Of a stretch of DNA of 64,000 nt, positions 2,058-8,584 are shown one piece after another. Both the position numbers and the translations under genes were made by a program. The first letter of the stretch is position 1. Every line of letters begins with the position of its first letter. Location: assembly GCA_965602015.1 (NCBI GenBank), contig OZ271918.1, positions 1,344,001 through 1,408,000 on the forward strand, written 5' to 3'. Under the pieces are notes generated by a model. The model worked only from the letters and a program-made list of their open reading frames with translations, made no database searches and was not told the origin of the DNA. The DNA comes from Salinispira sp. Its GTDB lineage: Bacteria; Spirochaetota; Spirochaetia; DSM-27196; Salinispiraceae.

Positions 2058-2714
2058 ATGAACACGGGACTGATTCTCGATTTTCTCACCTCCCTTCGGC
2101 AGCATAACGACAGGCAATGGTTTGATGCTCACCGGGGCGAATACGAGAATGCCCGGGAAGGCTTCCTTGAATTGCTTGATGAGCTGCTGATACGCTTCCC
2201 CGACAAAAGAGCTTTGCCCCAAGCGGAGGCAAAGAGCCTGATGTTTCGCATAAATCGGGACGTGCGCTTTTCAAAAGATAAATCACCCTACAAGGTCAAC
2301 ATGTCGGCCCTCATCGGCCCCCATGGTCGAAAGAGCCAGAGCCGGTACTATTACATCAGCATCGAGCCCGGCGGCCGCTCAATTGCCGCAAGCGGCTTAA
2401 AGTCCCCCGACGCCAAAACCCTGAGAGCTGTTCGCCAACGCATAGCCGACAATAGCGAAGACCTGCGGTCAATAATAGAAGCCGAATCAATTGTCAGCAT
2501 GTTCGGCGGCCTGGAGGGCGAAAAGCTCAAGACAGCCCCACGGGATTTTGCCCAGGACCATCCGGCAATCGACCTGCTCCGCTACAAGGAATATATGGCT
2601 TCCCGCAGTTTCAGCGACGAAGAAGTACTCCAAGACACATTCATCGATGAGCTGCTCGAGAGCTTTCGCCGGCTGCAGCCCCTGGTTGAGTATTTTGACG
2701 GGATTGTTGGGTAG
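2058..2714 (+). CDS. DUF2461 (TIGR02453) family protein
   Basis: HNDRQWF..R..YE and FRINRDVRFSKDKSPYK signature. Confidence 0.9.
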   Translation: MNTGLILDFLTSLRQHNDRQWFDAHRGEYENAREGFLELLDELLIRFPDKRALPQAEAKSLMFRINRDVRFSKDKSPYKVNMSALIGPHGRKSQSRYYYISIEPGGRSIAASGLKSPDAKTLRAVRQRIADNSEDLRSIIEAESIVSMFGGLEGEKLKTAPRDFAQDHPAIDLLRYKEYMASRSFSDEEVLQDTFIDELLESFRRLQPLVEYFDGIVG

Positions 2715-2715
2715 G

Positions 2716-2848
2716 GGTTTCTAGCTTTGAAAAAAGCGATCAACAGCTGAACATCAGCGAGCTCACCGACTTTTGGTATCGAGTCGATAACAGCAACGGC
2801 CGGGTCGGCTGGGCCTACGGGGCGTTTTTGCGGATGGACGGGCAGTAA
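2716..2848 (+). pseudogene. Orphan 3' remnant of SH3-domain gene (copy 1 of SH3-tail repeat)
   Basis: Encodes ..EKSDQQLNISELTDFWYRVDNSNGRVGWAYGAFLRMDGQ*. Near-identical to 4787-4919 and 7688-7820; has no 5' part. Confidence 0.85.
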
Positions 2849-2849
2849 G

Positions 2850-3134
2850 CTAAGAAGCTTCGTGCAATCTATTATTCACATATTTATGCAAAACACTCGA
2901 GACAAGTGTCTGGTAGGGTATTCCTTCCTCGAGGGCTTTTGCCTTCAATTTGCTTATGTCTGCAGAACTCATACGAATATTCATTCTCTGATCTTTTTTT
3001 CCGGTATTATCCGCCGCTGTTTTGAACCTAACCAACTCTTGTTCAGTGAGCGTCACGATCTCAAACTCATCATTTTCTATCGAAGCTATCAAATCCTGCT
3101 CATAATCATCAAGCGGGGTAAATTCATCGTTCAT
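2850..3134 (-). CDS. Antitoxin, BrnA/CopG (ribbon-helix-helix)-like
   Basis: KDQRMNIRMS..D..KLK.KA...GIPYQTLVSSVLHKY motif; overlaps the upstream toxin. Confidence 0.8.
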   Translation of the reverse strand: MNDEFTPLDDYEQDLIASIENDEFEIVTLTEQELVRFKTAADNTGKKDQRMNIRMSSADISKLKAKALEEGIPYQTLVSSVLHKYVNNRLHEAS

Positions 3135-3405
3135 TTGTTCCTCCCAGGATCAAGCGGGTGTACTTTCTGCTTTTGTAAATGGTCTTTAGAAAATATCCAT
3201 TTTCTGTCGGTACAGCCGGAACCACGTATACATAATTATTGAGGATAACCAGCAGTAGTTCCTGGTCAGCATACTTCTCAGGATTGGTATGCCGTAGTTT
3301 CCTGACCAAACCGCCATTCTGAATGGCGACAACAATCTCTTCAAACTGAATATTCCGTTCCTTTTTCAGTTTTTCATTTTTATCCTGGCTCCAGTCGAAA
3401 ACCAT
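3124..3405 (-). CDS. Toxin, BrnT-like (type II TA)
   Basis: FDWSQDKNEKLKKERNIQFE...FLKTIYKSRK. Start placed at MVFDW, 5 nt downstream of a -10 box. Confidence 0.8.
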   Translation of the reverse strand: MVFDWSQDKNEKLKKERNIQFEEIVVAIQNGGLVRKLRHTNPEKYADQELLLVILNNYVYVVPAVPTENGYFLKTIYKSRKYTRLILGGTNER

Positions 3406-3410
3406 GGGTA

Positions 3411-3439
3411 ACAATATTCGCATGTGTGCCTGAAGTCAA
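3411..3439 (-). promoter_or_regulatory. sigma70-type promoter of the TA operon (leaderless)
   Basis: TTGACT-N17-TATTGT, then 5 nt to ATG 3405. Confidence 0.6.
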
Positions 3440-3444
3440 TACAT

Positions 3445-3628
3445 ACCGACGACTGCGTGGGCCTCTTCCACCGCAACATCGCCTATGCCCCGGATTCCGC
3501 ATGGGCAGCCTATATCGTATCATCCTATACCGGTGCAGAGCGCTATCTCTCCAACGCCAGCAGTGCCGAACCCTGAGCAAATCCCGAGAAAATGGCAAAT
3601 TGTGAGGTTAAGATCAAATGAAAACTAA
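3445..3628 (+). pseudogene. Internally deleted remnant of an NlpC/P60-like peptidase C-terminus
   Basis: TDDCVGLFHRNIAY (3445-), then in another frame PEQIPRKWQIVRLRSNEN* (3572-3628), matching the end PRDWVVVRLVGE* of 6073-6630. Overlaps the ATG of the next gene. Confidence 0.6.
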
Positions 3629-4919
3629 GCTGATAGGCATTAGCATAATATGTTTTTTTCTTATCTTCCCGACGTTGTACAGTCAGGAGATTCAAACGCG
3701 TGGACTCGAATCAGTTGCGGCATATCGAGAAGGTAGCGGTTACGGAGAATTAGGGACGATTGAGGAACGCAGAGGGTATTCCGGACCTTCTGCACCTGCC
3801 TTTGTTCTATTTTCACCGGTTCTTGGTTTGAATGACCGTTTTAATTCACGGGTGGCATTTGTGGACAGCTCGGGCAATTGGTTATCAATGGTACTACTCA
3901 AACAGAGCGTCCCGTCTGGAGTGTTATTCAATCACCAGCAAGATCACCTGATACTCATGTCAGGAGTGAGCTATCCTGAATTATATATTTACCCCCCCGA
4001 TGGAGACAAAGTTGCCGAGTTATTTTTCCAAGGTAATGAGCGCGGTGCACCTGATAATGTCAGCTCTGATTTAGCATTAGGATACTTTGAGTATTACAAT
4101 GGTCTGCTCTTGCTTAAAGATAGCGAAAACCAGTTTCACTCCATCCTCAACCCCGGCATGGATCAGGCGGAAAACCGGGCAAATCTTATGAATACCCGTC
4201 AGACCCGGGATTACCTTCAGGCGACCTACGGAACCTCAGATGATGCCGAACTTCGCCTGGACGCGCAGGGCCGGCTCTTTATCAACGGCAGACTTCTCAC
4301 CTACGACTGGGTCACCTTCCGGGACTACTTTGCCGAGGAAACCGCCGGGCTTGAGCCTCCGCCGTATGCTGCTGAGCGGCCTTACAGTGGTTATATTAGT
4401 ACTTTTAATACAAGCTCAAATTTCATAGGATTCGACGCATATTGGAATTATTATTGGAACATTGGCAGAAGCTTTGTAGCAGTTTTCAGCCCCGATGGAT
4501 GGATAATATAATTATTCCGAATTGATATCGAAGCCGTCGACAGCACCCCTGTGGTCACCGCCAATGGCGATCTCTACTTTTACAGCTTTCAGGGAGAACA
4601 GGGAACCATCGAACTGCTCACTATACGAAACACCTGGGACCCCATCGATGAAGAGTTCGCCATACCAGGTACATCATCTTCCAACCAGGCAATCCCCCAG
4701 GCCACCGTCATCAACTCCCGCCTGCGGGTTCGAAGCGCCCCCTCGTTGGACGGGGAAATGCTCGGCATGCTGGAAATCGGGGAAGCGGTTTCTATCCTTG
4801 AGAAAAGCGATCAACAGCTGAATATCGGCGAGCTCAGCGATTTCTGGTACCGGGTCGACAATGGCAACGGCCTGGTCGGCTGGGCCTACGGGGCTTTTTT
4901 GCGGATGGACGGGGAGTAA
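3618..4919 (+). pseudogene. Secreted protein with C-terminal SH3 domain, interrupted by an in-frame TAA at 4509-4511
   Basis: ORFs 3618-4511 and 4551-4919 share a frame (GWII*LFRIDIEAVDSTPVVTANGDLY). Signal peptide present; full-length paralog at 6630-7820. Confidence 0.85.
4699..4919 (+). repeat. SH3-tail repeat copy 2
   Basis: About 220 bp near-identical to 7600-7820 (QATVINSRLRVRS.PSL.GEMLGMLEIGE...GWAYGAFLRMDG). Confidence 0.9.
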
Positions 4920-5298
4920 GAAAGGGAGCTGGCTTTTTTACGGCCTTTCCTGCTGGGGTGCCCGGGCATAGAAGGACCGTCGCGTACGGTGGTGCCGAAG
5001 CTTGGAGATAGGGTAGATATCTGGCGTCTTATGCAGCCTATACCTACTGGCCTCGGTAGCATTCTCGCAATCCTGGATTTTTCCTACAACTGCAAGTCTC
5101 CGGTAAACCGTGTGTCTACGACAGGTATGGGGAGTATTTCCCTCCCGTCCAACAGCATGGCACCACTGTAAAGCATCAGTGCGGACTGGGATCATGAGCC
5201 TACTACTTCAACTCGGTAACCTCTGGATATAGAGAGGCTAATTGCCAGGATATAGTATATAATAACCTTGGAAGAGTGTTTTGCGGCTGGGGGAATCG

Positions 5299-5604
5299 AT
5301 GGACGTGCGGATTCACAATGTAATTAATAGACTGAAGGTAGCGTTCCCTGAAGCAAAGTTTATTGTATTTGGGTCGCATGCCAGCGGTCGACAGGAAAGG
5401 GATAGCGACCTGGATTTATGTGCAGTTTTTTCTGTTCTCGAAAAAGATCCTTTTGAAATTGCTTATGACGTCCGTGTTGAGGCTCAGAAGTACATCGATA
5501 TCCCCATGGATATTTTTGTCGTCAGCGAATACGACTACAATGAACGGCGTCATGAAGTTGGAGCGTTGGAGCACATAGTGGCTACGGAAGGAGTAGCGGT
5601 TTAG
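5299..5604 (+). CDS. Minimal nucleotidyltransferase (MNT) antitoxin-like
   Basis: FGSHASG...SDLDL (GS-x10-DxD); coupled to the HEPN gene. Start could be 5281. Confidence 0.85.
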   Translation: MDVRIHNVINRLKVAFPEAKFIVFGSHASGRQERDSDLDLCAVFSVLEKDPFEIAYDVRVEAQKYIDIPMDIFVVSEYDYNERRHEVGALEHIVATEGVAV

Positions 5605-5990
5605 TGAAGAAGCTCACCAACGAATGGCTGGAGTATGCGGCAAATGATTTAACAGCAGCTCGGACCCTACATCAATCCTCAAACCCTCCGTATGAAATAA
5701 TTACATATCATTGTCAACAATCTGTTGAAAAGAATCTGAAAGCGATTCTCATTGAGCAAAATTTTACCGTACCGCGCACTCATGATCTAAAAATCATTAT
5801 TCAGGAAGTCTTAAAGATCGCTGATGATTTCGCGGATATGCTTTCGGATTGTAATCGATTAACTCCGTTTGGCGTGATAACCAGATACCCGGGTTCATCA
5901 ATGACAGTCACGAAAGATCACGTGGATTTTGCTCTTACTGCGGCAGAGCGAATAGAAAAACGCATAGTCAGTTACCTGGAAAAAACCTAG
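5604..5990 (+). CDS. HEPN domain protein (MNT-HEPN pair)
   Basis: W...A..DL..A, YHCQQSVEKNLKA, RTHDL and TRYP motifs. Confidence 0.85.
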   Translation: MKKLTNEWLEYAANDLTAARTLHQSSNPPYEIITYHCQQSVEKNLKAILIEQNFTVPRTHDLKIIIQEVLKIADDFADMLSDCNRLTPFGVITRYPGSSMTVTKDHVDFALTAAERIEKRIVSYLEKT

Positions 5991-6072
5991 GTCTTTGAGT
6001 TTATCTACAACTCACTCCTAAATGCAGATTTTCTTATGGGTTAGACAGTCAATTGTGCCAGATATTTTTTGA

Positions 6073-6630
6073 TGCCACGGTAGTATTGCCGGATACTTAG
6101 CCAGAACCGACCGCGTAGACTTTACCTATCGAAGCATGAGCTATGAAGGAAGCGATTATGAGCTTCTGTCAGGCGAAAACTCCAGTCGATTTTTGGATGA
6201 TGCGACAAATGGCGCAGTGTATTGGGGCGAAAGCCGCGTGTTGCTTCGTTACCCGTACCCCGGTGATAATGATGCGGTGGTGATAACTGCCAGGTCCGAG
6301 CCTCAATACAGAGAAAATGAGGTAACTGGATTGCAAGAACCCTTCTGGCCAAATCTACAAATTGTCAAAACCGGCGATCTAATGTATTACGATTACACCG
6401 GTGAAAATCAGAACCAGGACGGAGCGCATCTGGCGATCGTCCTGTGGGTTCAAGATGAAGATGGCAAAGGCGAGATTGAGCCCGATGAGGTGTGGTTGAT
6501 TGAGAGTACGTATGGGACTGAGCAAGGGGTCGTCTTTGGTAATGTCCATGCCCTTCGCACACTGGATACATATGGCACTGATCCTGATCGACCGAGAGAT
6601 TGGGTAGTAGTCCGATTGGTTGGAGAGTAA
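6073..6630 (+). pseudogene. Orphan NlpC/P60-like (papain-fold) peptidase C-terminal fragment
   Basis: Open frame from 6073: YLARTDRVDFTYRSMSY (decayed AGTDCVGF), VKTGDLMYY, GAHLAIV, LIEST. No signal peptide or N-terminus. TAATG coupling to the next gene. Confidence 0.65.
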
Positions 6631-7820
6631 TGATGAAACGAATACCGATTTGCATTTTTTTATCGTTCTTTGTCTTTGGAATATACGCTCAAAACATTGC
6701 TGAGAAAAGTTATGAACAGGTAATGAGCTATCAATCCGGGTCTCGAATGGAAAATCTCGCCATCGGGGAAACTGGCCCATTGGGAGTACCCTCTGGGCCG
6801 ATCATGGGGCAATCAATTAATGGGTTGTTGATTTTTAATATATTAAATAACCGTTTGGTTATGCTTAATGAGGCGTATCGATTTGAACAAGTAGTGAACT
6901 TACGGACGGAAATTGATATCACGCCGTATGATTTCAATTCACCCTCTGAGTTTTTACTTGCGACCACTCTGCAAGTATTTGCGATTTTTAATTCTGAATC
7001 TGGGGAAACTCAGGAATTATGGATCGCCCATTTCCCTGAGTTTCGCAACTACCGCTCCTTCGCCTATTACGAGGATGTCCTGTTCGTCCACGATGCCGAG
7101 CTGAACCTGTGGAGCATCCCTGAGCCGGTGGATGATCAGGATGAGAACCGGGATAAGCTGCTGAATGAACGGCAAACCGGTGAGTATGTGCGCGAGCGAT
7201 GGGGCGCCACCGGTGAGGTGCAGGTCGATAGTGAGGGAAGGTTGTTCATCGATGGGCAGTTGGTGACCCGGGATTTTCCTACATGGCTTGGATACCGCGG
7301 TATTCAAACTGATCTCGAACCCCGATTAATCGGTACAGATCAAGCAGGCACCACTTACTGGACACTGTATTCACTAATATATATATACGAATCTGGAAGT
7401 ACTCGCGCGAAAACTATTCGATATGATCCAAACCTCGTGAGTGGATATCCGACAGTTGAATATCAGACCGGAGACCTGTACTTCCTGGGCCGGCCGATCT
7501 CCAATAACACGCAAATTCCCCTCTACCGCATAGCCAACGATTGGGATCCAGTCCAGCCAGGCAGCACCACAGGCGCGCAAGATAATGGATCATTCAGCCA
7601 AGCTACCGTCATCAACTCCCGCCTGCGTGTTCGAAGTGTCCCCTCGTTGGAAGGGGAAATGCTCGGCATGCTTGAAATCGGGGAAGAGGTTTCTCTCCTT
7701 GAGAAAAGCGATCAACCGCTGAACATCGGCGAGCTCACCGACTTTTGGTACCGCGTCGATAACGGCAACGGCCTTATCGGCTGGGCCTACGGGGCTTTTT
7801 TGCGGATGGACGGACAGTAA
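6630..7820 (+). CDS. Secreted protein with C-terminal SH3 domain (candidate immunity protein)
   Basis: Signal peptide MMKRIPICIFLSFFVFGIYA; SH3b-like LRVRS.PS...WYRV...GWAYG; paralog of 3618-4919. Confidence 0.8.
   Translation: MMKRIPICIFLSFFVFGIYAQNIAEKSYEQVMSYQSGSRMENLAIGETGPLGVPSGPIMGQSINGLLIFNILNNRLVMLNEAYRFEQVVNLRTEIDITPYDFNSPSEFLLATTLQVFAIFNSESGETQELWIAHFPEFRNYRSFAYYEDVLFVHDAELNLWSIPEPVDDQDENRDKLLNERQTGEYVRERWGATGEVQVDSEGRLFIDGQLVTRDFPTWLGYRGIQTDLEPRLIGTDQAGTTYWTLYSLIYIYESGSTRAKTIRYDPNLVSGYPTVEYQTGDLYFLGRPISNNTQIPLYRIANDWDPVQPGSTTGAQDNGSFSQATVINSRLRVRSVPSLEGEMLGMLEIGEEVSLLEKSDQPLNIGELTDFWYRVDNGNGLIGWAYGAFLRMDGQ
7600..7820 (+). repeat. SH3-tail repeat copy 3
   Basis: Near-identical to 4699-4919 and 2716-2848. 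Confidence 0.9.
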
Positions 7821-7892
7821 GCTAAAAAGCTTCTTGTTTCAACTCGCAGCTCCCGGTAATACTGTTCCTGCTATGGCCAGTTTGATGAGGAT

Positions 7893-8177
7893 TCAGGAAG
7901 CTTCGTGTAATCGATTATTCACATATTTATTCAAAACACTCGAGACAAGGGTCTGGTAGGGTATTCCTTCCTCGAGGGCTTTTGCCTTCAATTTGCTTAT
8001 GTCTGCAGAACTCATACGAATATTCATTCTCTGATCTTTTATTCCGGTATTATCCGCCGCTGTTTTGAACCTAACCAACTCTTGTTCAGTGAGCGTCACG
8101 ATCTCAAACTCATCATTTTCTATCGAAGCTATCAAATCCTGCTCATAATCATCAAGCGGGGTAAATTCATCGTTCAT
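7893..8177 (-). CDS. Antitoxin, second copy of 2850-3134
   Basis: 94-aa protein differing from copy 1 at two residues (K>I, H>N). Confidence 0.85.
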   Translation of the reverse strand: MNDEFTPLDDYEQDLIASIENDEFEIVTLTEQELVRFKTAADNTGIKDQRMNIRMSSADISKLKAKALEEGIPYQTLVSSVLNKYVNNRLHEAS

Positions 8178-8325
8178 TTGTTCCTCCCAGGATCAAGCGG
8201 GTGTACTTTCTGCTTTTGTAAATGGTCTTTAGAAAATATCCATTTTCTGTCGGTACAGCCGGAACCACGTATACATAATTATTGAGGATAACCAGCAGCA
8301 GTTCCTGGTCGGTATACTTCTAAGG
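8167..8325 (-). pseudogene. 5'-truncated BrnT-like toxin (3' half only)
   Basis: Near-identical to about 3124-3282; similarity stops abruptly at the tRNA 3'-end repeat at 8326. Confidence 0.85.
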
Positions 8326-8344
8326 TTAGCAGGGGCAGGACTCG
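8326..8344 (-). repeat. 19-bp direct repeat of the tRNA-fMet 3' end (att-like site)
   Basis: ttagcaggggcaggactcg at 8326-8344 and 8511-8529. Confidence 0.85.
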
Positions 8345-8511: not shown

Positions 8512-8584
8512 TAGCAGGGGCAGGACTCGAACCTGCGACCTCCGGGTTATGAGCCCGACGAGCTGCCAACTGCTCTACCCTGCG
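8512..8584 (-). tRNA. tRNA-fMet (CAT, initiator)
   Basis: CGCAGGG.../CCCTGCT-A with an unpaired first position; three G-C pairs in the anticodon stem (TCGGG-CTCATAA-CCCGG); GGTTCGAGTCC T-arm. Confidence 0.95.

Follow-up and report, generated by a model that had tools for sequence, protein, structure and literature searches.

In CdiA/CdiI systems and among Rhs orphans, headless cassettes of a toxin tip and its immunity gene follow the full-length gene, with a conserved block before the tip. Here we analyse a region of the Salinispira sp. genome (Spirochaetota) within a 64,000-nucleotide stretch of contig OZ271918.1 (assembly GCA_965602015.1, positions 1,344,001 to 1,408,000), referred to as the window, whose numbering applies unless another locus is named. 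In this region, headless gene ends resembling NlpC/P60 domains (tips) stand directly before genes (partners) for predicted exported proteins with a propeller-type body and an SH3 tail; in relatives, the tip ends a long secreted protein, the carrier. We consider it likely, at a probability of roughly 0.7, that the region is a decayed tip–propeller array of a spirochaetal family of polymorphic cell-wall toxins and immunity proteins, probably retained here for defence only. The family resembles CdiA/CdiI and the Rhs orphans in having headless cassettes that share a block upstream of the tip, and differs from them in that the partner has a signal peptide and its gene ends, at the 3′ side, in another shared block. 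Pfam matched no haemagglutinin or RHS stalk and no two-partner transporter in the carrier P0001, in 31 relatives or in the carrier of genome G456, unlike a neighbouring true Rhs protein that scores E 4.9e-115.

Polymorphic toxin systems have a conserved carrier, a variable C terminus, a downstream candidate immunity gene and standalone cassettes (PMC3482391), and all four features are seen in the organization of the family described here. The table of that paper lists Tox-NLPC/P60 in Bacteroidetes and delta-proteobacteria, with RHS repeats and export by type VI secretion system (T6SS), Photorhabdus virulence cassette (PVC) or TcdB/TcaC, and gives no immunity family for it. NlpC/P60 as a predicted wall-degrading toxin is common to that listing and our family, which departs from it in its spirochaetal hosts, a carrier without a Pfam family, a propeller partner with an SH3b or YARHG tail, an associated giant protein and a type II secretion cluster. 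Another likeness is to Tse1/Tsi1 (Tae1/Tai1) of Pseudomonas aeruginosa (PMC3391265), which pairs a papain-fold hydrolase with a periplasmic propeller-type immunity protein. Tse1 travels as a small cargo of the T6SS and the propeller of Tsi1 is partial, with three sheets, whereas the tip described here, far from being a small standalone effector, ends a Sec-type protein of 1,100–1,960 residues, its partner is predicted by modelling to be a complete propeller that carries a wall-binding tail, and the modules form arrays. No T6SS genes were seen in the fetched loci, a genome-wide search not having been made. S8-PTS (PMC9424270) is likewise a three-part, signal-peptide-dependent polymorphic toxin locus found through gene neighbourhood; its Gram-positive hosts, S8 peptidase, BetaH domain and mostly nuclease tips are all unseen here. 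Among the open-licence papers searched we found no description of such a spirochaetal system; PMC12236494 gave no match for toxin, secretion system, NlpC or T2SS, nor bioRxiv 10.1101/2021.10.19.465003 for NlpC or SH3.

A decayed tip–partner array in Salinispira

The region contains two partner genes, A and B, with near-identical SH3 tails and differing bodies, each with a tip that adjoins or overlaps its start, and a third, bare SH3 tail (Table 1). The bodies of A and B are 15–45% identical per 40-residue block, and their SH3_3 tails 88–89% identical (90.6% of nucleotides over 224 bp). The bare tail aligns to the other two at 82–84% by tblastn and 88% of nucleotides, with identical codons at 29 of 34 shared residues. 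A preliminary description of this DNA had reported these tails and bodies, together with toxin–antitoxin (TA) pairs between the modules and a neighbouring tRNA-fMet, and each was recovered, the TA pairs being CopG/BrnT-like and MNT–HEPN. Its claim of a module occurring twice stands in that both sites have a partner and a tip; it gives way in that tip 1 amounts to about 58 codons and partner A is broken. The earlier observation is largely real, and the region is more decayed than it described. The in-frame stop in partner A cuts away the last part of the body together with the SH3 domain; a frameshift was considered as the lesion and rejected. In contigs from three read runs, which stem from one sample, possibly the source, and are not independent, neither this stop nor the altered catalytic codon of tip 2 shows alternative letters.

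Tip 1 resembles the family in its DCVG helix only. The family-derived pattern DC[VI][GA][LFM]xx[RH]xxxY has a single match among the 7.74 million six-frame positions that the genome offers, at tip 1, and on the tip hidden Markov model tip 1 scores 2.0 bits, ranking 123rd against 20,000 control segments, which is not significant. Tip 2 is better preserved, being 77% identical to residues 1354–1522 of P0001 and carrying an allele found in the longer protein P0006. At the catalytic Cys position it has Arg (6112–6114), reading TDRVD where the parent has ADCVG, and it retains His119 and Glu144. Neither window tip thus keeps the catalytic triad of the papain-like family. The headless NlpC-like fragments proposed earlier do stand before both partners, the first as a remnant; the DCxG start attributed to them does not hold for tip 2.

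The model of tip 2 (predicted local distance difference test score (pLDDT) 78, predicted template modelling score (pTM) 0.76) points to an NlpC/P60, papain-like fold, as the preliminary description had proposed. A wide structure search placed it best against an NlpC/P60 domain (Z 7.3, root-mean-square deviation (rmsd) 2.5, 92 residues aligned), and the leading 38 rows were all NlpC/P60, CHAP or related papain-like folds, with Tse1 at row 22 (Z 6.0). Atlas rows gave NlpC/CHAP at 0.90. Pfam returned weak CHAP or NLPC_P60 matches for relatives and no match of any kind in tip 1, tip 2, the partner A body or P0001. A single-protein search with tip 2 across 401 genomes of the phylum recovered the window itself only; relatives required alignments. 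The host genome, which is complete (3.87 Mb) and of the same genus as genome G001, yielded no full-length parent or carrier, and no giant or secretin of the kinds described below. With no parent recovered from the genome and no intact tip, the window array cannot itself supply a toxin.

In relatives the tip ends a long secreted carrier

The parental arrangement is seen in G001, where a long carrier-type open reading frame (ORF) lies directly before a gene 88% identical to residues 1–154 of partner B. P0001, of 1,522 residues, has a signal peptide and ends in a tip-2-like domain. A profile made from three carriers defines a family of 202 clusters, of 1,100–1,960 residues and with a signal peptide, of which we examined the best 150 together with P0001. 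The tip is the C-terminal end of 62 of 69 proteins longer than 1,000 residues; of the other seven, two look truncated and five have different ends. Within these long proteins all 47 terminal matches to the tip motif show Cys, whereas 37 of the 57 internal matches show Ser. A carrier comprises an NlpC-like copy in its interior, which is non-catalytic, and a Cys-His-Glu domain at its end. In an alignment of 54 rows each of the three catalytic residues is conserved to at least 90% (a deeper alignment was too diverse to serve pattern scans). With signal-peptide-like N termini on P0001 and its relatives, this is the layout of a secreted multidomain carrier with a C-terminal toxin-like domain, and the earlier expectation of large full-length proteins ending in the tip domain and directly followed by a partner gene was borne out in relatives.

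Unrelated C-terminal domains occur on the one carrier family in 5 of the 69 long proteins, as in polymorphic toxins. An M23 end is found on P0146 (long) and on the shorter P0111, P0130, P0152 and P0161, and P0136 is cut inside M23. P0067 and P0096 share an end domain with a resemblance to Ntox44 that we treat as a lead only (Atlas 0.90, the family being on 14% of members, without a Pfam match), and P0116 has a hydrophobic tail. Carriers with alternative ends are 29–40% identical over 1,100–1,300 residues. P0001 and P0096 were also used to scan metagenomes, without recovering any locus, and the alternative ends have no genomic context. The WRANLY-NlpC module is also present on dockerin/CBM3 carriers (P0098, P0142), suggesting transfer to cellulosome-type organisms.

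These dockerin/CBM3 relatives, the use of two distinct wall-hydrolase folds and the lack of any injection apparatus in the fetched loci would fit a predatory or scavenging exoenzyme acting on unrelated bacteria and shown on the giant, with the partner as a self-protecting inhibitor and the variety of tips mirroring the walls of prey. We regard this as quite improbable: several partners are kept without a carrier, in the host genome and in genome G005, which suits protection from relatives better than protection from an enzyme of one's own.

The partner as a candidate immunity protein

Modelling of the partner B body (pLDDT 82) gives a β-propeller of NHL-like type with six blades, which superposes on the Brat NHL domain with Z 14.3 and rmsd 4.4 over 237 aligned residues. 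Among relatives the partner tail is SH3_3, YARHG, an F5/8-type domain or absent. The SH3 domain, considered as the defining feature of partners, was therefore rejected in view of the YARHG and tail-less forms. The proposal that an SH3-anchored protein is the immunity partner survives in altered form: because SH3 is one of several tails, it is the propeller body that becomes the candidate for immunity. The describers of the YARHG domain left its role open (PMC3355149).

A homologue of partner A (83% of nucleotides) at 499–1869 of locus L023 (G001:C672) lies about 370 bp from a tRNA-Phe-like gene, so judged from the translation and different from the tRNA of the window.

Tandem arrays and the co-variation of tips and partners

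Of 39 tips from 20 genomes, 37 have directly downstream, at −25 to +20 nucleotides, an ORF that begins with a signal-peptide-like sequence. Tandem headless tip–partner arrays occur in six treponemal genomes (G708, G670, G664, G616, G677 and G388), often behind a full-length carrier gene; the array of G708 has three cassettes and a remnant, and G670 has two arrays. Orphan arrays, as predicted earlier from the window, are thus found in relatives, and standalone tip cassettes with shared recombination blocks are present in these six genomes and in the window.

Cassettes of one array (G616, G677, G708) are 86–97% identical in nucleotides in the 5′ block and then diverge, the tips behind the shared blocks being mostly 14–40% identical in amino acids. 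The usual shared block, RPGDD...YDKKMLWRANLY, lies about 170–300 residues before the catalytic Cys or further upstream; at or upstream of it, the shared stretch measures 812 bp in G616 (93%), 253 bp in G708 (87%) and 159 bp in G677 (86%). In G664 the block reaches 67% only, and in one array of G670 none is detectable. The DCxG region, proposed as the 5′ recombination handle, was rejected as a general one, since the shared block lies upstream of the Cys; among the arrays examined, tips starting near the DC motif are found in the window only. At the other end, the proposed SH3 handle is upheld as a homogenized 3′ block, the cassettes of a genome having an SH3 or YARHG block in common there: within a genome, tails have identical codons at 29 of 33 to 38 of 39 positions, with bodies at 15–45% in the most divergent blocks.

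The similarity of tips correlates with that of partner bodies across 32 modules (Mantel rho 0.46, reached in 0 of 2,000 permutations), 7 of the 39 modules having been dropped as truncated or duplicate sequences. The module with the best-matching tip ranks among the top three partners in 27 of 32 cases (3.1 expected), and in multi-module genomes the closest tip sits in another genome for 17 of 22 tips. The downstream gene thus varies with the tip, as in polymorphic toxins, although linkage could account for part of this. Judged by these comparisons, modules clearly appear to travel as tip–partner units, with linkage explaining part of the co-segregation.

In one sister species, the stretches of tips and partners that lie between invariant blocks are patched together from a small set of alleles. 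Silent-cassette variation is known in spirochaetes from vlsE and tprK, and segmental mosaics in both genes could likewise reflect the variation of a surface structure such as a phage receptor or adhesin, with the tips as silent donors and the partner as a structural subunit, neither being toxic. This is highly improbable in our view, given that the terminal Cys, His and Glu are conserved where the internal copy is Cys-less, and that every donor brings a complete partner gene. The genome G005 (L042–L044, L128, L130, L131) has at least seven contig pieces with a tip and partner, two of them beside a transposase gene; their tip segments are shuffled, and no carrier or giant was found.

Distribution and neighbours of the carrier

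The tip is patchily spread, occurring in 5 of 99 genomes of the window's own order and, as strong matches, in 21 of 393 of the treponemal order; weak matches (E > 1e-9; 22 of 43 genomes) were excluded as probable ordinary NlpC/P60 proteins. Of the 15 full-length loci whose upstream DNA is visible, 9 encode, directly before the carrier, a giant of 4,800–5,800 residues rich in immunoglobulin-like (Ig) domains, two giants being cut by the fetched stretch, and a gene of about 450–580 codons precedes the giant wherever upstream DNA is visible. In 6 of the 21 treponemal genomes with a strong tip, the contig that carries the tip also has a secretin gene less than 30 kb away from it. Anywhere in the genome, a secretin is present in 15 of these 21 versus 125 of 372 others, related genomes not being independent. 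By Pfam, G670 and G658 both have GspD, GspE, GspF and a prepilin peptidase, G456 and G658 have GspG, and in G388 fragments of a type II system adjoin the array. The giant, the type II cluster and the alternative C termini had gone unnoticed in the preliminary description.

Several further observations concern these neighbourhoods. In G456 the complete loci L058 (310–1974), L060 (273–1895) and L062 (208–1836) open with an lnt-like gene, a call checked by Pfam for L058, and a gene of about 445 codons without a Pfam family. The type II cluster of the same genome contains an Rhs protein that bears an NlpC/P60 tip of its own (L059, 13327–19845; L143, 3–6890) and small downstream genes. In G002, some 6 kb separate a broken SH3 tail from an Rhs-core fragment with a C-terminal tip (L027, 15979–16824). 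Two pairs of huge ORFs in G000 (genome coordinates 2149179–2166672 and 3740478–3755581; 2,000–3,800 residues) are unrelated to the Ig-rich giant apart from one weak match.

Linkage to type II genes and to the giant would also be expected if the tip were a self-directed hydrolase that opens the owner's peptidoglycan for type II assembly and export of a giant adhesin; the propeller would then regulate or chaperone it, and the arrays would be debris of duplication. NlpC/P60 and M23 domains are typical of autolysins, and solved autolysin–inhibitor pairs such as LytE–IseA are among the fold matches. Yet the tip is found in just 15 of the 140 secretin-bearing genomes searched, the cassettes are deeply divergent and move as tip plus partner, with intact partners behind headless tips, and the carrier also bears ends unlike hydrolases. 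We therefore judge this explanation unlikely.

Weighing the toxin–immunity reading

Several points weigh against reading the region as a polymorphic toxin–immunity array. The toxicity of the tip and the protection by its partner are predictions from sequence, not experimental results. Most tips are of one fold, in contrast to Rhs or CdiA, and the alternative ends, confined to 5 of 69 long proteins without genomic context, could be paralogues. The best structural match of tip 2 falls in a Z range that the search tool rates as common, and Foldseek with the same model gave no match at E ≤ 0.001. YARHG-type partners gave no significant alignment to the window-type propeller (probability 1.3%), and partner families therefore probably number at least two. 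Neighbouring genes would co-segregate through linkage alone and related genomes are not independent; the mosaic partners derive from assembled metagenomes, and some of them may be chimeric.

Other such points concern delivery. Secretins are common in the treponemal order (140 of 393 genomes), and 6 of the 15 full-length loci lack a giant. In G001, which has the long parent and is 83% complete in 780 contigs, no secretin or giant was matched, and for this reason the route by type II system and giant is not established for the window's genus; no secretin was found in G000, G001 or G002. This route is less certain than the toxin–immunity logic.

On the toxin–immunity reading, which we prefer, Sec would take the carrier across the inner membrane and the linked type II system would take it across the outer one; the carrier would be displayed on or with the Ig-rich giant, and its tip would cut the peptidoglycan of a neighbouring cell. 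Anchored to the wall of its owner through SH3b or YARHG, the propeller would obstruct the active site of the cognate tip, a mode of inhibition proposed by analogy with that of Tse1 by Tsi1. Recombination between the shared carrier block and the partner tail would swap tip and partner jointly. The host genome may have dropped the carrier and delivery genes and kept one intact partner, B, which could shield it from sister strains bearing a matching tip. More tentatively, and with somewhat less than even confidence, the family as a whole may be a contact-dependent spirochaetal weapon, in which a dedicated type II cluster exports a stalk of about 5,000 residues rich in Ig domains and a carrier with swappable tips, some strains having shields only. 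The tip could then be NlpC/P60, M23 or possibly an Ntox44-like RNase or membrane-active tail, exchanged together with a wall-anchored propeller between the carrier block and the SH3 or YARHG tail, with further shuffling of segments within both genes.

Layout and borders of the region

From left to right the region comprises a DUF2461 gene, the bare SH3 tail, a TA pair, the tip remnant, partner A, MNT–HEPN, tip 2, partner B, the second TA copy, an 18-nucleotide copy of a tRNA 3′ end and tRNA-Met (Table 1). Its G+C content is mostly 42–52%, versus 50–62% in the flanks. The bare tail and first TA pair form a direct repeat (2709–3282) that is a copy of 7681–8325, at 88% and 98% identity; no joints between the two repeats were found in the read-run contigs. 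The CopG-type antitoxin was recognized at a Pfam E of 1.9e-5, below the cut-off, and the BrnT/DUF4258-like toxin weakly (E 0.017–0.048).

Table 1 Features of the array region, in window positions
Feature	Position	Strand	Remarks
Bare SH3b tail, apparent remnant of a deleted third partner gene	2714–2848	+	Left end of direct repeat with 7681–8325
Type II TA pair: CopG-type antitoxin (2850–3134), BrnT/DUF4258-like toxin (3124–3408)	2850–3408	−	
Tip remnant 1, DCVG helix only	3445–3621	+	Internal TGA 3574–3576; last stop overlaps ATG of partner A
Partner A: propeller-family body between a signal peptide and an SH3_3 tail	3618–4919	+	In-frame TAA 4509–4511
MNT (5281–5604) and HEPN (5604–5990) pair	5281–5990	+	Pfam NTP_transf_2 E 2.5e-8; HEPN E 1.8e-20
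Tip 2, headless C terminus of predicted NlpC/P60 fold	6073–6630	+	Homology from ~6084; no signal peptide
Partner B, intact, 395 residues, candidate immunity protein	6633–7820	+	Signal peptide, propeller, SH3_3 at residues 329–390
TA pair, second copy, 98% of nucleotides	7893–8326	−	Toxin copy ends at 8326
att-like 18-nucleotide duplicate of tRNA 3′ end	8327–8344	−	Just two copies genome-wide
tRNA-Met(CAT), initiator type by sequence	8512–8584	−	

The C1 start and GGG/CCC anticodon stem of the tRNA are presumably those of an initiator. Its 3′ 18-mer (8512–8529) recurs 185 bp away and truncates the second TA toxin copy there, a duplication resembling the scar left by an element that uses tRNA-Met. 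An island bounded by att sites was considered and rejected, the 18-mer having no copy at the left end of the region. Promoter and terminator scans of the region gave results near shuffle level. Further left, the window encodes a membrane-anchored protein with N-terminal RanBP-type zinc ribbons (2–937; weak Pfam matches) and a lipoprotein-like polysaccharide lyase (994–1908; PF14099, E 2.3e-19).

Implications

If the toxin–immunity reading is true, the 202 clusters without a Pfam family would represent a new carrier family, accompanied by new wall-anchored immunity families, and proteins with a YARHG tail would gain a function. It would also give a role to the type II clusters present in about one-third of the treponemal genomes searched and to the giants of 5,000 residues. 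Its tips and partners would provide naturally diversified pairs of peptidoglycan hydrolase and inhibitor that are directly testable in E. coli.

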